Below are positions 1 to 28,720 of a DNA stretch of 29,871 nt, in pieces. This DNA comes from a virus (lineage: Duplodnaviria; Caudoviricetes), in IMG/VR virus record IMGVR_UViG_3300021961_000428, positions 1-29,871 of that record; one strand, given 5' to 3'. A program made the position numbers and the translations under genes. A model generated the notes under the pieces. The model was not told where the DNA came from, searched no databases, and was given only the letters and a program-made list of their open reading frames with translations. Every line of letters starts with the position of its first letter. Position 1 is the first letter of the stretch.

Positions 1-48
1 GGTTGCAAGACCTAGCGCAAAAAAACAGAGCTAGCCCTTTTACAAATC

Positions 49-67
49 TTGACGCGCAATTTTACAA
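49..67 (+). promoter_or_regulatory. Putative phage late-promoter motif TTGACG...TTTTACAA directly upstream of start codon
   Basis: TTGAC at 49-53, 19 nt before ATG 68. Near-identical arrangement (TTGACG..CATTTTACAATG) at 13788-13811, and related motifs 20 nt before ATGs at 5878, 16172 and 19220. Confidence 0.5.
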
Positions 68-664
68 ATGAAACTCGAAACCGTCCCGCTTGATTCAATT
101 TCGTTCGATCCGGCGAACACGCGGAAGCATTCCCGCCGCAACCTTGACGCGATCAAGGCGAGCTTGCGCCGATTCGGTCAGCAGAAGCCGATCGTCGTTG
201 ACGCGAAGGGAATCGTCCTCGCGGGCAACGGCACGCTGGCCGCAGCGACCGAGCTTGGCTGGACCGAGATCCAGATCGTCCGCACCGCGCTCGCTGGCGT
301 GGACGCGACCGCGTTCGGCATCGCGGACAACCGGACAGCCGAGCTTGCGGAGTGGGATGAAAAGTTGGGCGACGTTCTTCTGTCGCTGAGGGCCGAGGAT
401 TTTCCGATGGACGAGATCGGGTTTGAAGAGGCTGACCTAGGCAAGTTCGACGTCGCGGAAGCGTCGATGCCGGAACTTCCGAATGGCGACCGCGCACCGT
501 TTCGTCAGATGACGTTCACGGTTCACGATGACCAGTTCGCGACGATTGAAAAGGCATTGCAGAAGGCGAAGTCCGAGGGCGGCAGCGAATCGCCAAACAA
601 CGAAAATTCAAATGGGAACGCGCTGGCATTTATCGCCGCAAATTTCATCGGAGAAAAATCTTGA
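68..664 (+). CDS. ParB/Sulfiredoxin-like N-terminal domain protein (DNA-modification-associated)
   Basis: N-terminus NTRKH..IKASLRRFGQQKPIVVD..VLAGNGTLAAA..LG..IADNRTAELAEWD is a typical ParBc signature; stop overlaps start of the mom-like gene. Confidence 0.85.
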   Translation: MKLETVPLDSISFDPANTRKHSRRNLDAIKASLRRFGQQKPIVVDAKGIVLAGNGTLAAATELGWTEIQIVRTALAGVDATAFGIADNRTAELAEWDEKLGDVLLSLRAEDFPMDEIGFEEADLGKFDVAEASMPELPNGDRAPFRQMTFTVHDDQFATIEKALQKAKSEGGSESPNNENSNGNALAFIAANFIGEKS

Positions 665-1443
665 GCGAAGCGAAACAGATTCACCTTGCTCCGATCACCA
701 GAGGAGACGCGGAAAAAATTGTTCGCGCCTGCCATTATTCTGGGAAGACCGCATTCGGATCATTTCTGCACTTTGGAGTTTTCCTCGATGGAAAATGCGG
801 AGGAGCGATACAATTTGGGCCACCCGTTGATAAGCGAAAAATACTTCCGCTCGTCAAAGGAACCGGATGGAACGGATTTCTTGAGCTTAATCGGATGGCG
901 TTTGCGGATTGGCTTCCGCGGAATTCAGAGAGTCGCGCTTTGTCGGTTGCGATGCGATTGATACGAAACACCTATCCGCACATTGAGTGGGTAGTTTCCT
1001 TTGCCGATGCGACGCAATGCGGCGACGGAACAATCTATCGCGCAAGCGGATTTGTGCTGACACAGATCAAGGAAAACCGCTCAATGTGGAGAACAGCAAG
1101 CGGAGAGGTCGTCGCTGATTTTGTTTCTCGTCAGTTGCAAGGAGAGAACACGAGAAAGCGAATCGGATTCCGAATCGGCGAAAGCTGGGCTGATTTTGTG
1201 AAAAGAACTGGAGCGCAACGGTTGCCGGGTTTTCAACTGCGATATCTTTACTTCCTCAATTCATCCGCTCGTTCCCGTTTGACCGTTCCGATCATTCCTT
1301 TTAATGAGATCGAACGCCGCGGTGCGGCAATGTATCGCGGCCAAGCAATTTCACGCGCCGGAAGTGACACGAAGGACACGGCAGGCCTCCAGCCTGCAAA
1401 GGGCGGTTCAACCCCGACCCCGGCGCTCCAATCTGACGCATGA
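661..1443 (+). CDS. mom: Mom-like GNAT-fold adenine-modification enzyme
   Basis: Motifs HYSGK, LELNRMAF, PRNSESRALS, VVSFADATQCGDGTIYRASGF match Mu Mom-family proteins; TTG start coupled to upstream stop. Confidence 0.75.
   Translation: MSEAKQIHLAPITRGDAEKIVRACHYSGKTAFGSFLHFGVFLDGKCGGAIQFGPPVDKRKILPLVKGTGWNGFLELNRMAFADWLPRNSESRALSVAMRLIRNTYPHIEWVVSFADATQCGDGTIYRASGFVLTQIKENRSMWRTASGEVVADFVSRQLQGENTRKRIGFRIGESWADFVKRTGAQRLPGFQLRYLYFLNSSARSRLTVPIIPFNEIERRGAAMYRGQAISRAGSDTKDTAGLQPAKGGSTPTPALQSDA
1355..1430 (+). tRNA. Non-canonical tRNA-Gly(TCC)-like RNA embedded in the mom-like CDS
   Basis: 7-bp acceptor GCGCCGG(1355-61)/CCGGCGC(1420-26), discriminator T1427, encoded CCA 1428-30. D-stem GTG/CAC. 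Anticodon stem GCAGG/CCTGC with 7-nt loop CC-TCC-AG. 4-nt variable loop. T-arm GGCGG-TTCAACC-CCG(A)CC. 76 nt total. Confidence 0.75.
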
Positions 1444-2075
1444 GCGACGACGCACCGAATCCAGCCGAGCTGCTGGCGAAGGCGAACGTCGCCAACATCA
1501 CCAAGAAGCTCAAGGCTGGCAAGACGCTCACCGCCTCCGAGCGCAAGGCGCTTTCCGAGTTCGAGGCCGACCGCTCCGGTGGCGAATGGGTTAGCGGGCC
1601 GAAGCAGCTTGCCGAAGAGCTTGGTCTATCGCGGCAGGCGATTTACGATGCCCGCAAGCGATACCCTGACGAGGCTCCGAAGCCGGACGGCAAGCGTGAG
1701 AACGTTCCGGCATGGCGCGCCTTCTGCGCCGAAAAGCTGATCGGCAAGGACACGGCGACGAAGACACTCGCCGAGCTAAAAGCCGATTTAATGCGCGAGC
1801 AAATCCTGCTGGCGCGGTCGAAGAATCGCAGGGAAGAGCAAGAAGTCGTCGAGCGCGAAACCGTGCGCGAGATGCTGCGCCTACTCGGGACCAAGCTCGA
1901 CTTGCTCCTGCGCCTCAAGCTCGAAGTCGAACTCGGCCCGCGAGTCGCTGGCAAATCTGCCGCAGAGGCGAACGTCGAAGGCGCGCTCATCCTCGACGAG
2001 ATCCGCGAAGTGGTGAACGCGAATCTGGCGCGGTTCGAAACGGACGCGATCAAGGCAACGGTCGCCGAGGAATAA
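1440..2075 (+). CDS. Terminase small subunit (Nu1-like, HTH plus coiled coil)
   Basis: HTH (PKQLAEELGLSRQAIYDARK) followed by helical oligomerisation-like region; upstream of lambda-type TerL. Confidence 0.65.
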   Translation: MSDDAPNPAELLAKANVANITKKLKAGKTLTASERKALSEFEADRSGGEWVSGPKQLAEELGLSRQAIYDARKRYPDEAPKPDGKRENVPAWRAFCAEKLIGKDTATKTLAELKADLMREQILLARSKNRREEQEVVERETVREMLRLLGTKLDLLLRLKLEVELGPRVAGKSAAEANVEGALILDEIREVVNANLARFETDAIKATVAEE

Positions 2076-2082
2076 ACGGAGC

Positions 2083-2457
2083 ATGGTCAGACAAGAACAG
2101 ACCGGCGTCCGCAATCTCGACTTTAGCGGCTGGGTGCGTCGAACGCTCACCAGCGAAAAAGGGTTCACCGCATTCGACGTCGATTTCGTCTTCCGCGACT
2201 ACAAGCGGAAGCTCATTCAACTCGTCGAGGTGAAGACTCATTGCGGCAGACTCTCTACGCTCCAGCGGATCGCGCTCGGTGAGTTGGCGCAGATAATGGA
2301 GGCTGGAATCACCGCAGGGAAACCTACTCTCGGATGGCGATGGTGCGGAATGCACGAACTGCGTTTCGAGCATACGTCGCCGGAAAATGGGCGCATGATT
2401 TGGGATGGCGTCGAGGTTTCGGCGGAAGAGCTGACCCGACTGCTAGAAATGCGGTGA
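2083..2457 (+). CDS. PD-(D/E)XK superfamily nuclease-like protein
   Basis: FDVDFVF...QLVEVKT...LSTLQR resembles the D...E-x-K core with downstream S..Q helix of VRR-NUC/restriction-like folds. Confidence 0.55.
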   Translation: MVRQEQTGVRNLDFSGWVRRTLTSEKGFTAFDVDFVFRDYKRKLIQLVEVKTHCGRLSTLQRIALGELAQIMEAGITAGKPTLGWRWCGMHELRFEHTSPENGRMIWDGVEVSAEELTRLLEMR

Positions 2458-2512
2458 GCCGTGAGCGTTTCGGACTGTCCGAAAAAAAGTGCGTTTGGGT
2501 GAAAGATTTTTC

Positions 2513-2541
2513 TTGCAGAACCGGAGCGCTTGGGTTTTGCT
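2513..2541 (+). promoter_or_regulatory. Putative sigma70-type promoter with imperfect palindromic operator in the spacer
   Basis: TTGCAG (2513-18) preceded by an AT-rich tract, 17-nt spacer, weak -10 TTTGCT. AACCGGAGCGCTTGGGTT (2519-36) is an imperfect palindrome. Confidence 0.35.
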
Positions 2542-2583
2542 CTGTCTCGTTAAGTTAATCCAACAACAAAAACAACGACCAAC

Positions 2584-2829
2584 ATGACCACCCGCTCGAT
2601 CAATTTCAGCCTCGAAACCCACCGCAAAGAAGTCCTCTTCTCGGCGCGCAAAGAGATCCGTCGGTTCTGCGAGGAGAACCTGACTCGCGCCGACGTCGCG
2701 GAGATCCTCGCGAAGAAGTTCCCTTCGGCCTTTATCTACGTTGGCGGTTGCCACGTCGCGGTTCACGCCGACGGACCGAAGTTCGCCCGCGACCTGCTCA
2801 TCACCTCCAAGCACGAAGATTGGAACTAA
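2584..2829 (+). CDS. Hypothetical protein (81 aa)
   Basis: Clean ORF after A/C-rich leader AAACAACGAC; GC3-rich codon usage. Confidence 0.7.
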   Translation: MTTRSINFSLETHRKEVLFSARKEIRRFCEENLTRADVAEILAKKFPSAFIYVGGCHVAVHADGPKFARDLLITSKHEDWN

Positions 2830-2830
2830 A

Positions 2831-2881
2831 GGCCGAAACGCCGCAAGGCGTCGCACCGTCACGCGGTGCCTGACGATGGCC
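2831..2881 (+). ncRNA. Type II hammerhead ribozyme
   Basis: Stem II GGCC(2831-34)/GGCC(2878-81). GAAAC 2835-39. Stem III CGCC-GCAA-GGCG. GTC cleavage triplet 2850-52. Stem I GCACCG-TCACG-CGGTGC. Core CTGACGA 2870-76 plus one extra T. Intergenic position. Confidence 0.9.
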
Positions 2882-2912
2882 GTCAGCAACGACAACCAAA
2901 AAAACAACGACC

Positions 2913-3071
2913 ATGACCACAGAACAAATGATCAAACTTCTATCTGGCCGCATGATTATCTACGTCGGTCAACAAGGCGGTTTCCCGCTGCTTGTATTGG
3001 ATAATGGGACAAAGGTTTTGATTTCTTCGGATGATGAAATGAACGCGGCTGGCAGTATCATCGAACTCTGA
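2913..3071 (+). CDS. Small hypothetical protein (52 aa, MTTEQMIKLLSGRMIIYVGQQGGFPLLVLDNGTKVLISSDDEMNAAGSIIEL)
   Basis: Translated by eye (absent from the ORF track). Same AAACAACGAC leader; TGA overlaps next ATG (TGATG). Confidence 0.65.
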   Translation: MTTEQMIKLLSGRMIIYVGQQGGFPLLVLDNGTKVLISSDDEMNAAGSIIEL

Positions 3072-3928
3072 TGTTCACGACCCCACCACCGACCCGTTTC
3101 AATTTTCTTTCTCTGGGTGCTGGCGTGCAATCAAGCACGCTTGCGCTAATGGCAGCACGCGGAGAAATCGGACCAAAACCGGACGCAGCGATTTTTGCGG
3201 ATACACAAGCAGAACCTGCAAGCGTGTATCGCTGGCTCGATTATCTCGAAGCAGAGATCGGGCGAAGCACGTTTTCATTCCCGATTATCCGTATCACAAA
3301 AGGATCTTTGACCGATGAAAGCCTGAAGCTTCGCGAACGGGTTAAAAAACCCGGACCTCCTTGGTCGAAGTCATTGATTCCGGCGTTCATCAAAAATCCT
3401 GACGGAAGCCGTGGAATTTTAGGACGTTCATGCACCTACGACTACAAGGTAAAAACATTGATCAAGCAGCAGAGGAAAATGGCCGGAATCAAACGCGGCC
3501 AAAAAGAAGTCACAGTCACTTCTTGGATAGGTATTTCAATGGACGAGATCCAGAGAATGAAACCAAGTCGAGTTGCGTGGGTGCAACATCGTTGGCCATT
3601 GGTTGAATTGGAAATGACGCGCAACCATTGCTTGGAATGGATGAGCAAGCGCGGATATCCAAAGCCACCAAGGTCGGCTTGCGTTTATTGCCCGTTCCAT
3701 AGCGACAAAGAATGGAAACGGCTGCGAGATGAGGAACCCGAGGAGTTCAAGCGAGCCGTCGCGTTCGAGCGCGATCTGCAAGCGGTGAAAGCAAAAACCA
3801 CCAACATGAAAGGCATTCCATTTTTGCATTCATCTCTGCAACCACTCGACCAAGTCAGTCTTGAAATGATCGACCCTCGCCAAGCAAATCTCTTCGGAAA
3901 TGAATGCGAAGGAATGTGCGGAGTATAA
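3071..3928 (+). CDS. PAPS-reductase-like PP-loop (adenine nucleotide alpha-hydrolase-like) protein
   Basis: N-terminal SLGAGVQSS PP-loop variant, IFADTQAE, CTYDYK, WIGISMDE, PPRSACVYCPFH, C-terminal ECEGMCGV. Confidence 0.7.
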   Translation: MFTTPPPTRFNFLSLGAGVQSSTLALMAARGEIGPKPDAAIFADTQAEPASVYRWLDYLEAEIGRSTFSFPIIRITKGSLTDESLKLRERVKKPGPPWSKSLIPAFIKNPDGSRGILGRSCTYDYKVKTLIKQQRKMAGIKRGQKEVTVTSWIGISMDEIQRMKPSRVAWVQHRWPLVELEMTRNHCLEWMSKRGYPKPPRSACVYCPFHSDKEWKRLRDEEPEEFKRAVAFERDLQAVKAKTTNMKGIPFLHSSLQPLDQVSLEMIDPRQANLFGNECEGMCGV

Positions 3929-16171: not shown

Positions 16172-17872
16172 ATGCGCTTTTCGCTTTGCGTGATATGCGG
16201 CAACGAGTCGCACCACATAGGCCAGATGCTCGCAGCATTTGCTCCTGCGTTCGACGAGCTTTCGCTCGTGCGCGCAATCGGCAAGCGTGTGCCTGACGCG
16301 ACAAAGGAGATCGCCGAGGAGTGGTGCCGGTCGAACGGCAAGGCGTTTGTTTTCTCCGAGTATATTAACGAGCCGACCGCACGCGATTGGGATCACGTTG
16401 ATTCATTCGCTCGTGCTCGCAATGCCGCATTCAAGCAGGCCAAAAGCGAATGGCTTTTCTGGGCCGACTGCGACGACGTGGTGCGCGGTGCCGAGAATCT
16501 ACGTCGCACGCTGGAGCAAGTCCCGGCAGATGTGCAAATGGTGCGCTTCTCGTATGACGTCAAAGGATCGAACAAGTGCTTGTTCCGCGAGCGAGCGATT
16601 CGCCGAGACGCTTTCCACTCCGGTCGAGTCTGGCATCACGACGTACACGAGAACCTGCTGATTCTCGCTGGCGACAAGCATCTCGATCTCGGCGACGTTG
16701 TCTGGGTTCACGCACCAAAAGAAATCAAGCAGGAGAACCGGAGGCGCAATCTCCGCATCCTCGCAAACTCGGTTCGCGAATGCGCGACGCAGTATTTCTA
16801 TATTCATCAGGAGCATTACTGTAATCAGAACCGCGAAGCCGCGCTGGAGTTTGGTCGCCTCGCGTTGCAGTTCCCGAATCTTCAACCGGCGTTCCGATAC
16901 GAGGCGTTGCTGAATTGCGCTCGTCTGACTAATTCCAGCCGCGAAGCGAAGTCTCTTTTGCTCGAAGCGCACGGCGTTTTCCCGTGGTGCCGAGAGGCAT
17001 TCGCCGGTCTTGTGCTGCACGCCTTCGAACAGAAAGACTATTCGATGGCTGTATACTGGGCGCATCGCATGACGGAATTGCGCGAGCCATTGAGCGACAA
17101 GCGACCGTGGACGCACGAGGCGAAGTGGTACGGCTGGGCCGGATACGATCTTGCCGCTCGCGCATTCCGAGCCGAAGGCAACAAGGCGATGGCGGCGGTT
17201 CTTCAGGCTCAATACTATCTCGGCAAGACTCCGAAGATTTCGCTCCTGCACGCAACGCGAGGTCGCTCCTCAATGGCGGTTTCAACGCGGGATATGTGGC
17301 TGAATGCGGCCAGCGATCCGACGCGCGTTGAGCATATCTTCGCGGTCGATGAGGACGATGCCGTCAGCGTTGAGATGGCGAAGCAGTTCATCTCCGTCAC
17401 TTCGTCGGACAAGTCGTGCGTCGCAGCGTGGAATCTTGCTGCGGCATCTGCGCGCGGAGAAATCCTCGTACAACTCTCGGACGATTGGGTGCCATGCGCC
17501 GGATGGGATGAGAAGCTGCTCGATCTCGTGAGGGATCGCGACGCTCATTCCGAGCCATTCGTGATCGCGCCGAGCGATGGAAGCCGGAAGGACGACTTGC
17601 TCTGCATGGCGATCTTGTCGCGTGCTCGCTACGAGCAGCAAGGACACTTGTTCTTTCCTGAGTATGAGTCTGTATTCAGCGACAACGAATTCTCTCACCG
17701 AGCATGGCGCGACGGCATCGTGATCGACGCGAGAGATCGCCTGCGCTTCGATCACCGGCATCCGGCTTTCGGCAAGGCGAACATGGACAAGACATATTCG
17801 CACACGAATTCCCGCGAGCGATACGTGCGCGGCGAGGCGCTCTTCAAGTCACGCAACCCAGACGCGAAATGA
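16172..17872 (+). CDS. Two-domain GT-A (GT2-like) glycosyltransferase with central TPR-like helices
   Basis: FSLCVICGNE, DSFARARNAAF, WLFWADCDD, VHENL in domain 1; helical middle. ISLLHATRGR, FAVDEDD, VAAWNLAA, QLSDDW, FSDNEF in domain 2. Confidence 0.85.
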   Translation: MRFSLCVICGNESHHIGQMLAAFAPAFDELSLVRAIGKRVPDATKEIAEEWCRSNGKAFVFSEYINEPTARDWDHVDSFARARNAAFKQAKSEWLFWADCDDVVRGAENLRRTLEQVPADVQMVRFSYDVKGSNKCLFRERAIRRDAFHSGRVWHHDVHENLLILAGDKHLDLGDVVWVHAPKEIKQENRRRNLRILANSVRECATQYFYIHQEHYCNQNREAALEFGRLALQFPNLQPAFRYEALLNCARLTNSSREAKSLLLEAHGVFPWCREAFAGLVLHAFEQKDYSMAVYWAHRMTELREPLSDKRPWTHEAKWYGWAGYDLAARAFRAEGNKAMAAVLQAQYYLGKTPKISLLHATRGRSSMAVSTRDMWLNAASDPTRVEHIFAVDEDDAVSVEMAKQFISVTSSDKSCVAAWNLAAASARGEILVQLSDDWVPCAGWDEKLLDLVRDRDAHSEPFVIAPSDGSRKDDLLCMAILSRARYEQQGHLFFPEYESVFSDNEFSHRAWRDGIVIDARDRLRFDHRHPAFGKANMDKTYSHTNSRERYVRGEALFKSRNPDAK

Positions 17873-18507
17873 ACGTTCCCGAGCATTATCAAATCGACGC
17901 GAAGACAGGCGCGCTCCGGTCGAGGGATCGTCGCGTGACTGCGGTTTACGATCACGCCTACGTAGCACGATATGAAAACTATCCACAGCGTGAATTGTCG
18001 GCGATCAGAGCGAAGCTAGTGCATCGCTTTTCCGAATTTGCGATCAATGTTTGCGACGTAGGCTGCGGCACAGGTGCTTTCCTCGAAGAGATGAAACGCA
18101 CGCAGCCGGGAATCGTTTGCTGCGGTCACGACGTTTCTCCTTATCCGCTTCCGTCTTTCATCAATCGAGTCGGCGCAGACTGGCACGAGTTGCAATGGGA
18201 CACGGTAACGTTCTTCGACAGTCTTGAGCACTTCGATTCGCTCGACTTCGTTGAGCATCTGCGCGCTCGTGCGGTGATCGTATCGCTGCCGTGGTATCAT
18301 CCTTACATGGGAGCGAAATGGTTCGCTCGATGGAAACATCGCAGGCCGGGAGAACATCTCTGGCACTTCACGCCGGGAAGCCTGACGAGACTATTCGCGC
18401 AGGCTGGATTCCGTCCGGTCTATGTCGGCAATCCCGAAGATGAAGTGCGCAAGCCGGATGCAGATTCCTGCGCTCCAAACATTCTGACAATGGCATTTCG
18501 CCGATGA
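17869..18507 (+). CDS. Class I SAM-dependent methyltransferase (probable sugar methyltransferase)
   Basis: Motif I CDVGCGTGAFL, VTFFDSLEHF, EHLWHFTPGSL; ATG 17869 overlaps upstream stop. Confidence 0.85.
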   Translation: MNVPEHYQIDAKTGALRSRDRRVTAVYDHAYVARYENYPQRELSAIRAKLVHRFSEFAINVCDVGCGTGAFLEEMKRTQPGIVCCGHDVSPYPLPSFINRVGADWHELQWDTVTFFDSLEHFDSLDFVEHLRARAVIVSLPWYHPYMGAKWFARWKHRRPGEHLWHFTPGSLTRLFAQAGFRPVYVGNPEDEVRKPDADSCAPNILTMAFRR

Positions 18508-19217
18508 AAATCTGCCTCGTATACAGTCAGCGACTCGGAGACATCATCCGCATCCTGCCGATTGCGCGTCATCTCGCGGCTCAAGGTCACGAGGTTTACG
18601 TCGAGTGCTTGCCGCAATACGTCGGAGTTTTCGGTGCCGTTTCCTACGTGCGACCGTCGCTTAGGGAATTGCGCGAATCGGAAGGCTTCGGCAGAGTCAT
18701 CGACCTCGAAATCTGGCCGCATCGCTATGACGAGTTCAGACGCAGCGGAAAATCGTGGGAGGATTTCGTGTTCGGAATTCATTCTGAGTTCTCGAACATC
18801 CATCGCAAACCGCACTTCGATTTGATCGACGAAAACGACGGCCTCGAAAGCTACGGAGTTTCCCGCGAGGTGTGCATTTTTTCTCCATTCGGCTACTCTC
18901 AGGCGAGGCACTATAGGTTCTCCGATCTGCTCGCCGAATGCCGCAGGCTCGCTTCCAAGCCAATCGTGACGCTTGCCGATCCGGCGCAGGCAAAGCATCT
19001 CATCGAAATTGGTTTTCCGAAAAACGAAATCCTGCGCGCTCGATCTCAGGCAGACTTGCCGCGCCTGCTGCGTGACGCTGCGGAGGTCTTCACGATAAAT
19101 TCCGCGCCATGCATCATCGCTGGTGCCGTCCGGCCTTGGTTCTGGCACGTCTTGTCCGGTTGTGCGCAGGATGACCACTACAGCGCAGCGTCGCGCGTTG
19201 TGACACTCGGCACTTAG
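18504..19217 (+). CDS. GT-B glycosyltransferase, GT9 (heptosyltransferase)-like
   Basis: N-terminal QRLGDIIRILPIARHL and C-terminal LLRDAAEVFTINSAPCIIAGA match the GT9 pattern. Confidence 0.7.
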   Translation: MKICLVYSQRLGDIIRILPIARHLAAQGHEVYVECLPQYVGVFGAVSYVRPSLRELRESEGFGRVIDLEIWPHRYDEFRRSGKSWEDFVFGIHSEFSNIHRKPHFDLIDENDGLESYGVSREVCIFSPFGYSQARHYRFSDLLAECRRLASKPIVTLADPAQAKHLIEIGFPKNEILRARSQADLPRLLRDAAEVFTINSAPCIIAGAVRPWFWHVLSGCAQDDHYSAASRVVTLGT

Positions 19218-25984: not shown

Positions 25985-26370
25985 TCCGCCTCGCTCTCCT
26001 CCTCGCGCTCTGCGCGACAGCGCACGCCGCGCCGCCGGAAGCATTCTGGCGCGCTCTCCACGTAGTCGAAACCGGCGGCCGTCGAGGCGCAATCCTCGGC
26101 GATGGTGGCAAGGCTCTTGGACCGCTCCAGATCCACCGCGCATATCACGCAGACTCGCGCGTCGCTGGCGACTACTCGCGCTGCGCTGACCTCGCTTACT
26201 CGCGCCGCGTGGCCGAGGCTTATCTCAAGCGATACGCGCCGAAGGCGTGGGCCGCAGGCGACGTAGAGACGCTGGCGCGTGTTCACAACGGCGGTCCGGC
26301 CGGCGCGCGAAAGGCCGCGACACTGGCTTACGCGGCCAAGGTCAAGCGGGCGATGGGAGGTGCGCGGTGA
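25981..26370 (+). CDS. Secreted lysozyme-superfamily protein (i-type/destabilase-like or lytic transglycosylase)
   Basis: Signal peptide MIRLALLLALCATAHA; ALHVVETGG catalytic Glu; GPLQIHRAY; LARVHNGGPAG; TLAYAAKV. Confidence 0.78.
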   Translation: MIRLALLLALCATAHAAPPEAFWRALHVVETGGRRGAILGDGGKALGPLQIHRAYHADSRVAGDYSRCADLAYSRRVAEAYLKRYAPKAWAAGDVETLARVHNGGPAGARKAATLAYAAKVKRAMGGAR

Positions 26371-27734
26371 ATTACGAGACTTTCCTCGACGCCAAGCGGC
26401 ACGTCGGAGCTAGGCACGGGTTCGAGCCTACCTTCATACCGTCCAAATTATTCGAATTTCAGCGGGCGCTTGTCTCGTGGTCAGTCGAGCGCGGCCGGTC
26501 CGCTATCTTCGCTGACTGCGGGCTGGGTAAGACAGCGATCCAGTTAACCTTTGCCGAAAATGTCGTGCGGCATACGAACCGTCCGGTCCTTGTGCTGACT
26601 CCGCTCGCCGTGGCGCGGCAAGCTGTCGAGGAGGGCGAGAAGTTCGGCATCGATTGCGTGCGGTCCTCGGATGGCAAGTTCCCGCTAGGCGCGCGCGTGG
26701 TCGTTACCAACTACCAACGCCTTCACCACTTCGACCGGACGCAATTCGCGGGCGTCGTCTGCGACGAGTCATCGATCCTCAAGAACTTTGACGGGATGAC
26801 GAAGGCCGCGGTGACGGACTTCGCGCGTAAAATTCCCTACCGACTGCTCTGCACCGCGACCGCCGCTCCCAACGATTACATCGAGCTCGGCACGTCGAGC
26901 GAGGCGCTTGGCGAGATGGGCTTTTCAGATATGCTCGGACGCTTTTTTAAGAAGCAAGGGCCGACTACGTCGCGATCCGACGAGCACCGCGCTGGAGTCT
27001 GGCGCTTTCGCGGCCATGCCGAGAAGGAGTTCTGGCGCTGGGTCTGCTCGTGGGCGCGAGCCGTTCGCAGGCCGAGCGATATTGGTTGCGATGACGGACC
27101 GTTTAAGCTGCCGAAGCTCATCACGCGCGAACACGTCGTGGTTGCGCGGAGCCAGCGCGACGGGATGCTGTTCGACTTGCCAGCGATGACGCTCGCAGAG
27201 CAACGCGAGGAGCGTCGCCGCACGCTGGCCGAGCGATGCGAACTAGTCGCCAATCTTGTCGGCAATACCGGCAAGCCTGCGGTCGTCTGGTGTCATCTTA
27301 ATGACGAGGGCAAGGCTCTCTCAAAGCTGATCCGAGACGCAGCCGAGGTATCCGGCGACGACGAGGACGACAAGAAGGAGGAGACGTTTGAGGCGTTCGC
27401 GAATGGCGAGTTGCGCGTGCTGATCACTAAGCCGCAAATCGCGGGCTTTGGGCTAAACTGGCAGCATTGCGCGCATCAGACCTTTTTCCCATCCCACTCC
27501 TTCGAGCAATGGTACCAAGCCGTCCGCCGATGCTGGCGCTTCGGACAAAAGCGCGACGTTTTCGTCGATGTCGTCGCATCCGAGGGCGAGTCAGGCGTCG
27601 TTTCGAATCTGCAACGCAAGGCCGACCAAGCCGACGCGATGTTTAAGCATCTGGTATCACTCATCAACGACGAGCTTCGCATCGAAGGATCGAAGCACGT
27701 TTCCTTCAAACCCGCTTTTCCTTCATGGCTATGA
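26367..27734 (+). CDS. SNF2-like superfamily 2 helicase/ATPase
   Basis: FADCGLGKT, VVCDESS, CTATAAPND, GFGLNWQ, YQAVRRCWRFGQ; GTG 26367 with GGAGG at 26356-60. Confidence 0.9.
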   Translation: MNYETFLDAKRHVGARHGFEPTFIPSKLFEFQRALVSWSVERGRSAIFADCGLGKTAIQLTFAENVVRHTNRPVLVLTPLAVARQAVEEGEKFGIDCVRSSDGKFPLGARVVVTNYQRLHHFDRTQFAGVVCDESSILKNFDGMTKAAVTDFARKIPYRLLCTATAAPNDYIELGTSSEALGEMGFSDMLGRFFKKQGPTTSRSDEHRAGVWRFRGHAEKEFWRWVCSWARAVRRPSDIGCDDGPFKLPKLITREHVVVARSQRDGMLFDLPAMTLAEQREERRRTLAERCELVANLVGNTGKPAVVWCHLNDEGKALSKLIRDAAEVSGDDEDDKKEETFEAFANGELRVLITKPQIAGFGLNWQHCAHQTFFPSHSFEQWYQAVRRCWRFGQKRDVFVDVVASEGESGVVSNLQRKADQADAMFKHLVSLINDELRIEGSKHVSFKPAFPSWL

Positions 27735-28720
27735 ACAACGATAATCAACACATCACAGACCGCTTCGCACTATACAACTCCGATTGCATCGACGTAATGC
27801 GCGCGATGCCAGATGGATCGATTGACCTCTCTGTTTACTCGCCTCCGTTCTGCGGGCTGTACAACTACAGCAGCAGCGAACGCGATCTTTCGAACTGCCG
27901 CTCCTACTCGGAGTTCTTCGAGCACTATGACTTTGTGATCTCGGAGATCGCGCGGCTTACTAAATCTGGCCGGATCACGGCGGTGCATTGTATGGACGTT
28001 GCTGGCACCGGCAATGGGCCGACCGCCAAGATGGGCATTGCCGCAAACGTAGGATCTGGGCTGATCGACTTTCCCGGTGACATCATCCGCGCGCACGAAA
28101 AGCACGGATTCCAGTTCTGTATGCGCCGCGTGATCTGGAAGGAGCCGCTCGGCGTTCGATTGCGGACGATGGCAAAAGGACTTGCCCACGCACAGATCGT
28201 CGAGGACTCGACTTTGTGCGACGTTGCTGGAGGCGACTACCTGCTTTGCTTTAGAAAGAAGGGCGAGAATCCGGTGCCAGTCGCGCACCCGACTGGGCTC
28301 CACTCTTACGCCGGAGAGCGTCAGATGCCGCGCGAGTTGCTTGAATGGAAGGGACACGAAGGCAAGCAGACCGAGAATCGTTTCTCACATTGGATCTGGC
28401 GGCAATATGCATCGTGTGTCTGGGATGATATACGAATCGACAACGTGCTCGCCTACGAGGAAAGCCGCGATAAGGACGATGAGCGCCATGTGCATCCTTT
28501 GCAACTCGACGTGATCGAACGCGCAGTAGTGCTATGGTCGAATCCCGGTGAGGTAGTCTTTACTCCTTTCATGGGCGTTGGCTCAGAAGTTTACGGCGCA
28601 GTATTGAACGGGCGCAAAGGCATTGGCGTCGAACTTAAGTCGAGCTATTATCGGCAAGCGGTTCGCAATCTATCAGCGATTGGGCGGGATCAGAAAACGC
28701 AGGAGCTTTCCTTCGAATGA
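27731..28720 (+). CDS. DNA N4-cytosine/N6-adenine methyltransferase (beta class)
   Basis: Motif IV SVYSPPF precedes motif I FTPFMGVGSE; HVHPLQLDVIER; GIGVELK. Start 27725 or 27731. Confidence 0.88.
   Translation: MNNDNQHITDRFALYNSDCIDVMRAMPDGSIDLSVYSPPFCGLYNYSSSERDLSNCRSYSEFFEHYDFVISEIARLTKSGRITAVHCMDVAGTGNGPTAKMGIAANVGSGLIDFPGDIIRAHEKHGFQFCMRRVIWKEPLGVRLRTMAKGLAHAQIVEDSTLCDVAGGDYLLCFRKKGENPVPVAHPTGLHSYAGERQMPRELLEWKGHEGKQTENRFSHWIWRQYASCVWDDIRIDNVLAYEESRDKDDERHVHPLQLDVIERAVVLWSNPGEVVFTPFMGVGSEVYGAVLNGRKGIGVELKSSYYRQAVRNLSAIGRDQKTQELSFE

Follow-up and report, generated by a model that had tools for sequence, protein, structure and literature searches.

A tRNA-Gly-like RNA embedded in a phage mom gene, a candidate glycine donor for DNA modification

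A conserved RNA inside the 3′ end of mom

The 3′ end of a mom gene in the window (the whole 29,871-nt stretch of viral DNA analysed here) resembles a tRNA-Gly that departs from translating tRNAs at several positions, which raises the question of what such an RNA is for. The original prediction was that these departures fit selection for an RNA that is charged but escapes EF-Tu and the ribosome, rather than a random pseudo-tRNA. All five features that it listed, an extra A at 1417, C33, a C32-G38 pair, A8 and a 3-bp D-stem, are present (Table 1), and the acceptor stem and glycine determinants are intact as it had stated, with a fully paired stem in the window copy and identity bases that are invariant in 46 homologues.

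The window copy has the glycine identity bases G1-C72, C2-G71, U73, C35 and C36 (the identity set used here follows the available text of PMC9976931). At the places of the canonical U8, U33 and G18-G19 it carries A8, C33 and A18-A19, and the regular T-stem of 5 bp is interrupted by the extra A1417. The GG of the D-loop lies outside the 18-19 register, position 14 is C and position 48 is G, which makes loss of the usual tertiary core likely as well. A structure descriptor found 1355-1430 as the sole site in the window and no site in 40 shuffled windows; since the descriptor requires the identity bases, its counts are not evidence for those bases. The single-sequence fold is modest against shuffles (z -1.8), and the model score of the element, 90.8 bits, is high by construction. 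ARAGORN called no tRNA gene in the window and made a call at 4 of 43 homologous loci, Rfam (including RF00005) missed the element and gave as its sole match a chance snoRNA elsewhere in the window, and a promoter and terminator scan of positions 1-3100 found none near the element. Among sequencing runs, no holder of the RNA came up, a result that weighs neither way.

Table 1. Features of the mom locus and of the embedded RNA
Feature	Position in window	Strand	Details
ParB-like gene, overlaps mom start	68..664	+	PHROG 620, E 1e-33
Mom-family GNAT gene, 260 aa	661..1443	+	Pfam PF25680, E 8.6e-50, residues 7-214; PHROG 1384
Probable terminase small subunit gene	1440..2075	+	PHROG 57, E 7.8e-5
tRNA-Gly(UCC)-like RNA, 76 nt, encoded CCA	1355..1430	+	Long (D-hairpin) class of the mom-linked family
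Acceptor stem	1355-1361/1420-1426	+	7/7 Watson-Crick; G1-C72, C2-G71 and G3-C70 are glycine identity pairs
A8-A9 linker replacing U8	1362..1363	+	A8 = 1362
Remodelled D-arm hairpin, G18-G19 out of register	1364..1379	+	D-stem 1364-1366/1377-1379, 3 pairs plus A13.A22; outer 3 pairs paired in 100%
Anticodon arm, 6 pairs including C32-G38, 5-nt loop	1381..1397	+	Stem 1381-1385/1393-1397; C32 = 1386, C33 = 1387, UCC = 1388-1390, G38 = 1392
T-arm, G49-C65, G50-C64, C51-G63, G52-C62, G53-C61 plus extra A	1402..1419	+	1402-1406/1414-1416 plus 1418-1419
Extra (bulged) A between positions 63 and 64	1417	+	Inside the stretch read by EF-Tu
Discriminator U73 and CCA	1427..1430	+	U73 = 1427, CCA = 1428-1430

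We aligned 46 distinct homologues (alignment A1), dropping one sequence that is a base longer (L032). Pairing holds in 94.8% of the cells overall, in 99.4% for the acceptor stem, 99.6% for the anticodon stem and 100% for the T-stem in the bulged register, and the whole 6-pair D-hairpin is paired in 81%. No variation is seen at G1, C2, G3, C35, C36, G71, C72, U73 or the extra A, and the defects are thus distributed non-randomly, as had been anticipated. The covariation score is 0.541, compared with 0.147 for shuffled alignments and no more than 0.110 when the register is slid; acceptor pairs 4-7 covary, and positions 32 and 38 are paired in 46/46. These results confirm that 1355-1430 is a real, conserved non-coding RNA.

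The protein encoded by the enclosing gene is 35% identical to Mu Mom, with H25, Y26, R78, S91 and D116 corresponding to Mu H58, Y59, R111, S124 and D149, and with Q119 at the place of the essential Mu R151. Its residues 232-257 are translated from the RNA gene. The AlphaFold model has a confident core and pLDDT < 50 for residues 227-260, and the tail holding the RNA is likely a disordered segment, being modelled at low confidence. Downstream, the probable terminase small subunit gene starts 10 nt past the CCA, with an ATG that shares bases with the mom stop codon; upstream, the order parB-mom recurs in a Dehalococcoides module, as described in the available text of PMC3146451. According to the available text of PMC13219725, Mu Mom moves glycine from Gly-tRNA-Gly to adenine, giving N6-carbamoylmethyladenine, and takes all three E. 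coli tRNA-Gly isoacceptors while refusing Gly-tRNA-Ala.

Elsewhere in the window, further DNA-modification candidates lie at 3071-3928 (PAPS-reductase-like; PHROG 424, E 1.6e-45), 27725-28720 (N6/N4 methylase) and 26247-27734 (helicase-like). A GT2 glycosyltransferase, a methyltransferase and one further gene follow directly after the probable capsid gene (16172-19217), where they perhaps serve virion glycosylation. Positions 2520-2930 hold two similar A/C-rich leaders (about 2560-2590 and 2885-2915) preceding short genes, with a small inverted repeat at about 2830-2870; the leaders may be phage promoter or anti-termination leaders.

Association with mom and structural classes

The RNA is present in 80/80 of the best Mom relatives on viral contigs, which hold 47 distinct sequences and include one locus identical to the window. 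Since the first query contained the RNA-encoded tail, the search was repeated with Mom cores alone; Mom loci were gathered with single-protein queries. Using Mom-core queries, we found the RNA in 78/80 loci, in 15/42 loci of one clade and in 9/9 cellular contigs, and another such query gave 74/80 loci plus one antisense copy. The Mu-like clade carries it in 9/80 loci by the descriptor, to which the model adds two among the loci tested, and metagenome Mom hits, mostly distant, in 5/80 plus one antisense. Among 24 named-phage mom loci, four have the RNA on the sense strand (Psychrobacter phage Y8A with two D-armless copies, Salinibacter phage B2_17 with a bulged one, and the Arthrobacter phages Martha and Wyborn with bulge-less ones) and 19, Mu included, are without it; plasmid mom loci carry it in 0/4. 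A BLASTN search of the element against named phages returned 18 records, with Salinibacter phage B2_17 as the only real match.

Searches were also made in the other direction. A DNA pattern of the bulged stem matches an estimated 1200 or so stored stretches in IMG/VR, and Mom-like open reading frames accompany 75/80 of the pattern-found loci with long flanks and 36/40 of those with short flanks. As a control, 120 loci were collected with a general tRNA-Gly pattern: of the 104 with a regular T-stem none has mom nearby, and in the remainder one clearly bulged locus and 2 of 13 unparsed loci have it. Taken in both directions, these locus counts indicate that the link from the RNA to mom is tight and the link from mom to the RNA optional. 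The R151/Q state of Mom was rejected as a predictor of the RNA, as both states occur with and without it.

Several individual loci deserve mention. In Microbacterium phage Appa, the strand opposite to mom holds a near-canonical tRNA-Gly(CCC) with A8 that faces mom (L519:1327-1401, minus strand) and is predicted to bind EF-Tu tightly, and locus L691 (minus strand) has a bulge-less element antisense to mom. Two loci with near-identical mom genes differ in that L316 (1741-1790) lacks about 100 nt of L298 (1761-1890), comprising the final conserved codons together with the entire RNA; this is either a true loss or an assembly artefact. A free-standing tRNA-Gly(GCC) at L455:898-971 (minus strand) and about 16 similar loci among L455-L501 share the family's T-stem sequence, unbulged, with an odd T-loop; mom was not seen within their fetched flanks, and they are possible relatives of the ancestor of the mom-linked family. 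The Mom homologue of Arthrobacter phage SWEP2 (L502:768-1634) is annotated as an endolysin, probably wrongly.

The RNA occurs in three layouts: a long class of the window type, a short class without a D-arm and a 5′ class that overlaps the mom start. Among 180 elements, 8 lie at the 5′ end of mom, 12 contain the mom stop codon and 7 follow it. Most elements of the 3′ type lie wholly within the open frame (140/159), and 50 of these 140 fully embedded elements come with a 4-nt stop-start overlap with the next gene. The frame in which the RNA is read differs between classes, being one frame in 73/92 long elements and another in 58/80 short ones. Conservation of the tail peptide was rejected in view of the differing frames, the stops and the pLDDT below 50, and the comparison of homologues indicates that the conserved entity is the RNA rather than the peptide.

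The D-arm is absent from 72/144 bulged elements. In 23 sequences of one length from the short class, its place is taken by an extended anticodon helix that pairs with the variable region (93.5% paired). An encoded CCA is found in 72/72 short and 56/72 long elements. Three very short variants (L259:1788-1854, L311:1752-1818 and L320:1785-1851) keep the acceptor stem, CCA and bulged T-stem, and their anticodon stem is seemingly eroded. A tree of 142 Mom cores, quick and unfinished and built without the cut contigs L217 and L308 or near-duplicates, interleaves the long and the short forms; its well-supported branches force a minimum of 14-15 changes, so that an exchange of cassettes is suggested. 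Psychrobacter phage Y8A has two tandem copies past the mom stop codon, and two divergent tandem copies after mom occur in L102, L147, L183 and L201 (L201:2162-2302). The tandem copies suggest selection on dose.

The T-stem and predicted binding to EF-Tu

The extra base is A in 144/144 distinct bulged elements from protein-found loci and is present in 0/123 control tRNA-Gly. The controls are phage tRNA-Gly from which three mom-linked sequences (L370, L388 and L390) and the misregistered L417 were left out, and because the control pattern fixes positions 34-37 and the T-loop, the comparison is fair only at positions 8, 32, 33 and 38 and at the T-stem pairs. Within the 144 elements the T-stem pairs shift in step, 50-64 being G-C in 133 and A-U in 11 and 52-62 being G-C in 117 and A-U in 27, with compensatory changes at 50-64, 51-63 and 52-62. 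A 6-bp T-stem with a G.A mismatch, including G1401-C1419, is possible in the window copy alone; it pairs in 81.5% of cells across the family, compared with 100% for the bulged register, the covariation at 50-64 favours the bulge, and the 6-bp register was rejected for the family. A descriptor left free in its register and run on the first 214 loci chose the 63/64 bulge 176 times and an equivalent neighbouring register three times, with a single spurious hit and not one regular stem.

Whether homologous loci conserve the bulge had been raised as a check. It is conserved, with its invariant A, among the bulged elements, but is not a universal mark of the family, since 29 distinct mom-linked elements are bulge-less. 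These have A51-U63 in 22/29 cases, compared with 9/123 ordinary phage tRNA-Gly; the Wyborn element, also bulge-less, has G50.U64. When scored with single-pair EF-Tu energies for the T-stem (available text of PMC3239215), bulge-less elements have a predicted mean of -9.56 kcal/mol, compared with -10.43 (SD 0.53) for the 118 scorable controls, a difference whose nominal p of 5e-12 is overstated because only a few lineages are represented. For reference, the energies available to us from the published sources are -9.5 kcal/mol for the staphylococcal non-proteinogenic tRNA-Gly and a mean of -10.8 for Gly-UCC; against the latter, the three T-stem pairs of the window copy, taken without the bulge, give a predicted -10.0.

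We found no published measurement of how a bulge at 63/64 affects EF-Tu. In the initiator tRNAs of fungi and plants, binding of the elongation factor is blocked by a bulky group at position 64. The strongest new evidence is what appears, from these comparisons, to be convergence of the bulge and of A51-U63 on T-stems predicted to bind EF-Tu weakly, with counts that overstate the number of independent events because the sequences are related. Elements of the 5′ class keep U8 (19/22) and U33 (22/22) yet are bulged, in a set selected by pattern for which protein-found examples exist, and we infer from this that the T-stem change came first.

Not all of the remaining departures support avoidance of translation. 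U8 is replaced by A in most bulged elements (A in 132/144 and U in only 6/144; U in 116/123 controls). The proposed loop-closing pair is also borne out, as 32-38 covaries and is Watson-Crick in 136/144 elements (CG, GC, AU or UA) compared with 32/123 controls, nearly all of them U-A. C33, in contrast, cannot be kept as an anti-translation mark: position 33 takes any base (U in 60, A in 36, G in 36 and C in 12 of 144) and is therefore relaxed rather than selected as C. The 3-bp D-stem fails in the same role, being ordinary in tRNA-Gly(UCC), for example in L339; the real change on the D side is, by comparison of the homologues, remodelling or loss of the D-arm. Features needed for decoding are lost in many elements, with A34 in 62, C37 in 34 and the T-loop UUC in only 23 of 144. 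To our knowledge A34 is not used by bacterial tRNA-Gly, and position 37 is normally a purine in tRNA. G34 occurs in 0/144 bulged elements, in which U, A and C are common, and in 1/29 bulge-less ones. The compensatory changes in all stems, together with the weak EF-Tu pairs of bulge-less relatives, lend comparative support to the view that this is not a random pseudo-tRNA.

A proposed glycine donor and its relation to known systems

Given that Mu Mom uses Gly-tRNA-Gly, the best reading is that the RNA is a dedicated, predicted non-translating glycine donor for the adenine modification of phage DNA by Mom, and we consider this moderately probable on the comparative evidence. The RNA would be cut from the late mom transcript by RNase P and 3′ trimming and loaded with glycine by the host GlyRS; the charged RNA would be bound poorly by EF-Tu, owing to the extra A, and by the ribosome, and the Mom of the window would draw glycine from it. 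The consistent presence of CCA in the short class and in most of the long class fits the need for a free CCA end. Sequestration by EF-Tu inhibits FmhB, according to the available sources, and is thus a real limit for such transferases. As Mu works with host tRNA-Gly, the donor RNA would be an optional booster and not a requirement. The open frame across the RNA may serve translational coupling, which the 4-nt stop-start overlap of 50/140 embedded elements makes possible.

Several results speak against a donor. Mu Mom accepts every host tRNA-Gly isoacceptor and Mu has no such RNA, and the RNA is missing from 19/24 named-phage mom loci, 27/42 in one clade, 71/80 in the Mu-like clade (by descriptor) and 4/4 on plasmids. 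The T-stem sequence is more fixed than avoidance of EF-Tu alone would need. Q119 replaces the essential R151 of Mu, and the near-canonical tRNA-Gly beside mom in Appa is a predicted tight binder. In addition, C50-G64 is reported to be among the pairs that Thermus GlyRS recognises, so that some hosts could charge the RNA less well.

The RNA might instead be a glycine donor whose bulged T-stem serves Mom first of all as a positive handle, with escape from EF-Tu secondary or a result of the lost elbow, which we think unlikely. Near fixation of the T-stem (G49-C65 in 144/144, C51-G63 in 137/144) would suit a handle, as would the reported preference of FmhB for non-proteinogenic tRNA through D and T determinants and the pairing of bulge-less RNAs with Mu-like Moms that keep R151. 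However, a single Mom clade has both bulged (52) and bulge-less (22) RNAs, the same bulged stem accompanies Mom clades that are only 20-25% identical, and bulge-less forms converge on weak EF-Tu pairs. We likewise assign a low probability to a cis-acting mRNA element with no donor role, be it a tRNA mimic to which Mom or GlyRS binds or a site for RNase P, whose cut in the mom-terminase transcript would limit a toxic enzyme. In favour of a cis element, 140/159 elements of the 3′ type lie wholly in frame and those of the 5′ type overlap the start region; in either layout the mom mRNA would not survive excision, and the mom stop overlaps the next start in 50/140. Translational coupling to the next gene also accounts for the open frames, and a free, charged RNA is in keeping with the copies fully outside the open reading frame in Y8A and B2_17, the tandem copies in L102, L147, L183 and L201, the invariant C35-C36 and the distribution of CCA.

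That the RNA is a decoy, drawing off anticodon nucleases, TacT-like acetylases or other host defences that target tRNA-Gly, seems to us very improbable. TacT is reported to read U73 and G71 of tRNA-Gly, both of which are kept, and escape from EF-Tu would leave a decoy exposed, but the near-exclusive link to mom would go unexplained and the anticodon loop, which is what anticodon nucleases read, is remodelled. Least credible is a decaying pseudo-tRNA, an integration-site remnant or an ordinary decoding tRNA. Annotation tools do miss the RNA or call it tRNA-Gly or pseudo-tRNA, and the clean deletion in L316 relative to L298 would suit decay; the compensatory changes in all stems, the invariant bulge, the covarying new helix of the D-armless class and A34 or C37 in many copies do not, and the conservation data appear largely to refute this reading.

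If the donor reading is true, the element would be a non-proteinogenic tRNA encoded by a virus and also a tRNA reserved for the modification of DNA, neither of which we found described for Mom. It would account for the supply of glycyl-tRNA to Mom despite sequestration by EF-Tu, would give a function to the 'pseudo-tRNA' noted in 2011 and would reveal a family of about 1200 IMG/VR matches mostly missed by annotation. The bulged T-stem and D-armless forms would allow the requirements of EF-Tu, GlyRS and RNase P to be probed on natural variants, and would be possible scaffolds for amino-acid delivery outside the ribosome. Since cultured phages with non-pathogenic hosts carry the RNA, these ideas are directly testable. 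A broader proposal, that of a widespread family of amino-acid carrier RNAs for DNA modification inside the gene of the enzyme, with at least two independent T-stem devices (the bulged A at 63/64 or the weak A51-U63), swaps of cassettes, D-armless forms that are still charged by GlyRS and excision that silences the mom message, has in our judgement an even chance of holding. A donor role, the bulge and an EF-Tu signature were not found in the literature searched, which included few subscription papers, or in the main text and two supplements of PMC13219725.

Embedding of a tRNA-Gly-like locus in mom is already in print. McMurdie et al. (2011; PMC3146451, available text) described a conserved 76-bp tRNA-Gly-like 'pseudo-tRNA' that Dehalococcoides ssrA genomic islands carry inside mom homologues, within their first 150 bp and beside a ParB gene, with the anticodon DCC, variable in its first base, and with highest conservation at its 3′ end; that text proposes no function, T-stem bulge or EF-Tu link. 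The window family has the anticodons U/A/C-CC, and the window copy, with UCC and 76 nt, matches this description. The Dehalococcoides locus lies in the 5′ region of mom whereas the window copy lies at the 3′ end, and 5′-type relatives with the same bulged stem exist. Compared by description only, the Dehalococcoides locus is probably the 5′ type of the same family; no Dehalococcoides record was among the plasmid hits listed (best 40 of 78). Mu Mom (Silva et al. 2026; PMC13219725, available text) belongs to the same family as the window Mom, with H58, Y59, R111, S124 and D149 matched, and differs in using host tRNA-Gly, in having no RNA beside mom and in having R151 where the window Mom has Q. 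The short class, with its extended anticodon helix, resembles mitochondrial tRNA-Ser(AGY) in having no D-arm, in contrast to the window copy, which keeps a D-hairpin. Mitochondrial tRNA-Ser(AGY) is D-armless and decodes on mitochondrial ribosomes.

A parallel in predicted working is with the Staphylococcus non-proteinogenic tRNA-Gly NP1-NP3, which are donors for FmhB, FemA and FemB (available text of PMC7826273 and PMC3239215). These also keep glycine identity, have an altered T-arm and serve an aminoacyl transferase of GNAT fold. Their T-loop UGC is found in 58/144 family members, and the bulge-less members share A51-U63 and a predicted energy of about -9.5 kcal/mol. The staphylococcal combination of A49-U65, U50-A64 and A51-U63 with a UGC or UGU T-loop is absent from the window RNA, which has G49-C65, G50-C64 and C51-G63, the bulge and UUC. 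As described in these sources, NP1-NP3 are free-standing chromosomal genes with a regular T-stem and D-arm that act in cell-wall synthesis, whereas the phage RNA overlaps the gene of its enzyme, shows a bulge in the T-stem or lacks the D-arm, and would supply glycine to the modification of DNA. By analogy, we suggest that the window RNA resembles the staphylococcal non-proteinogenic tRNA-Gly in its predicted working and is not a member of that group.
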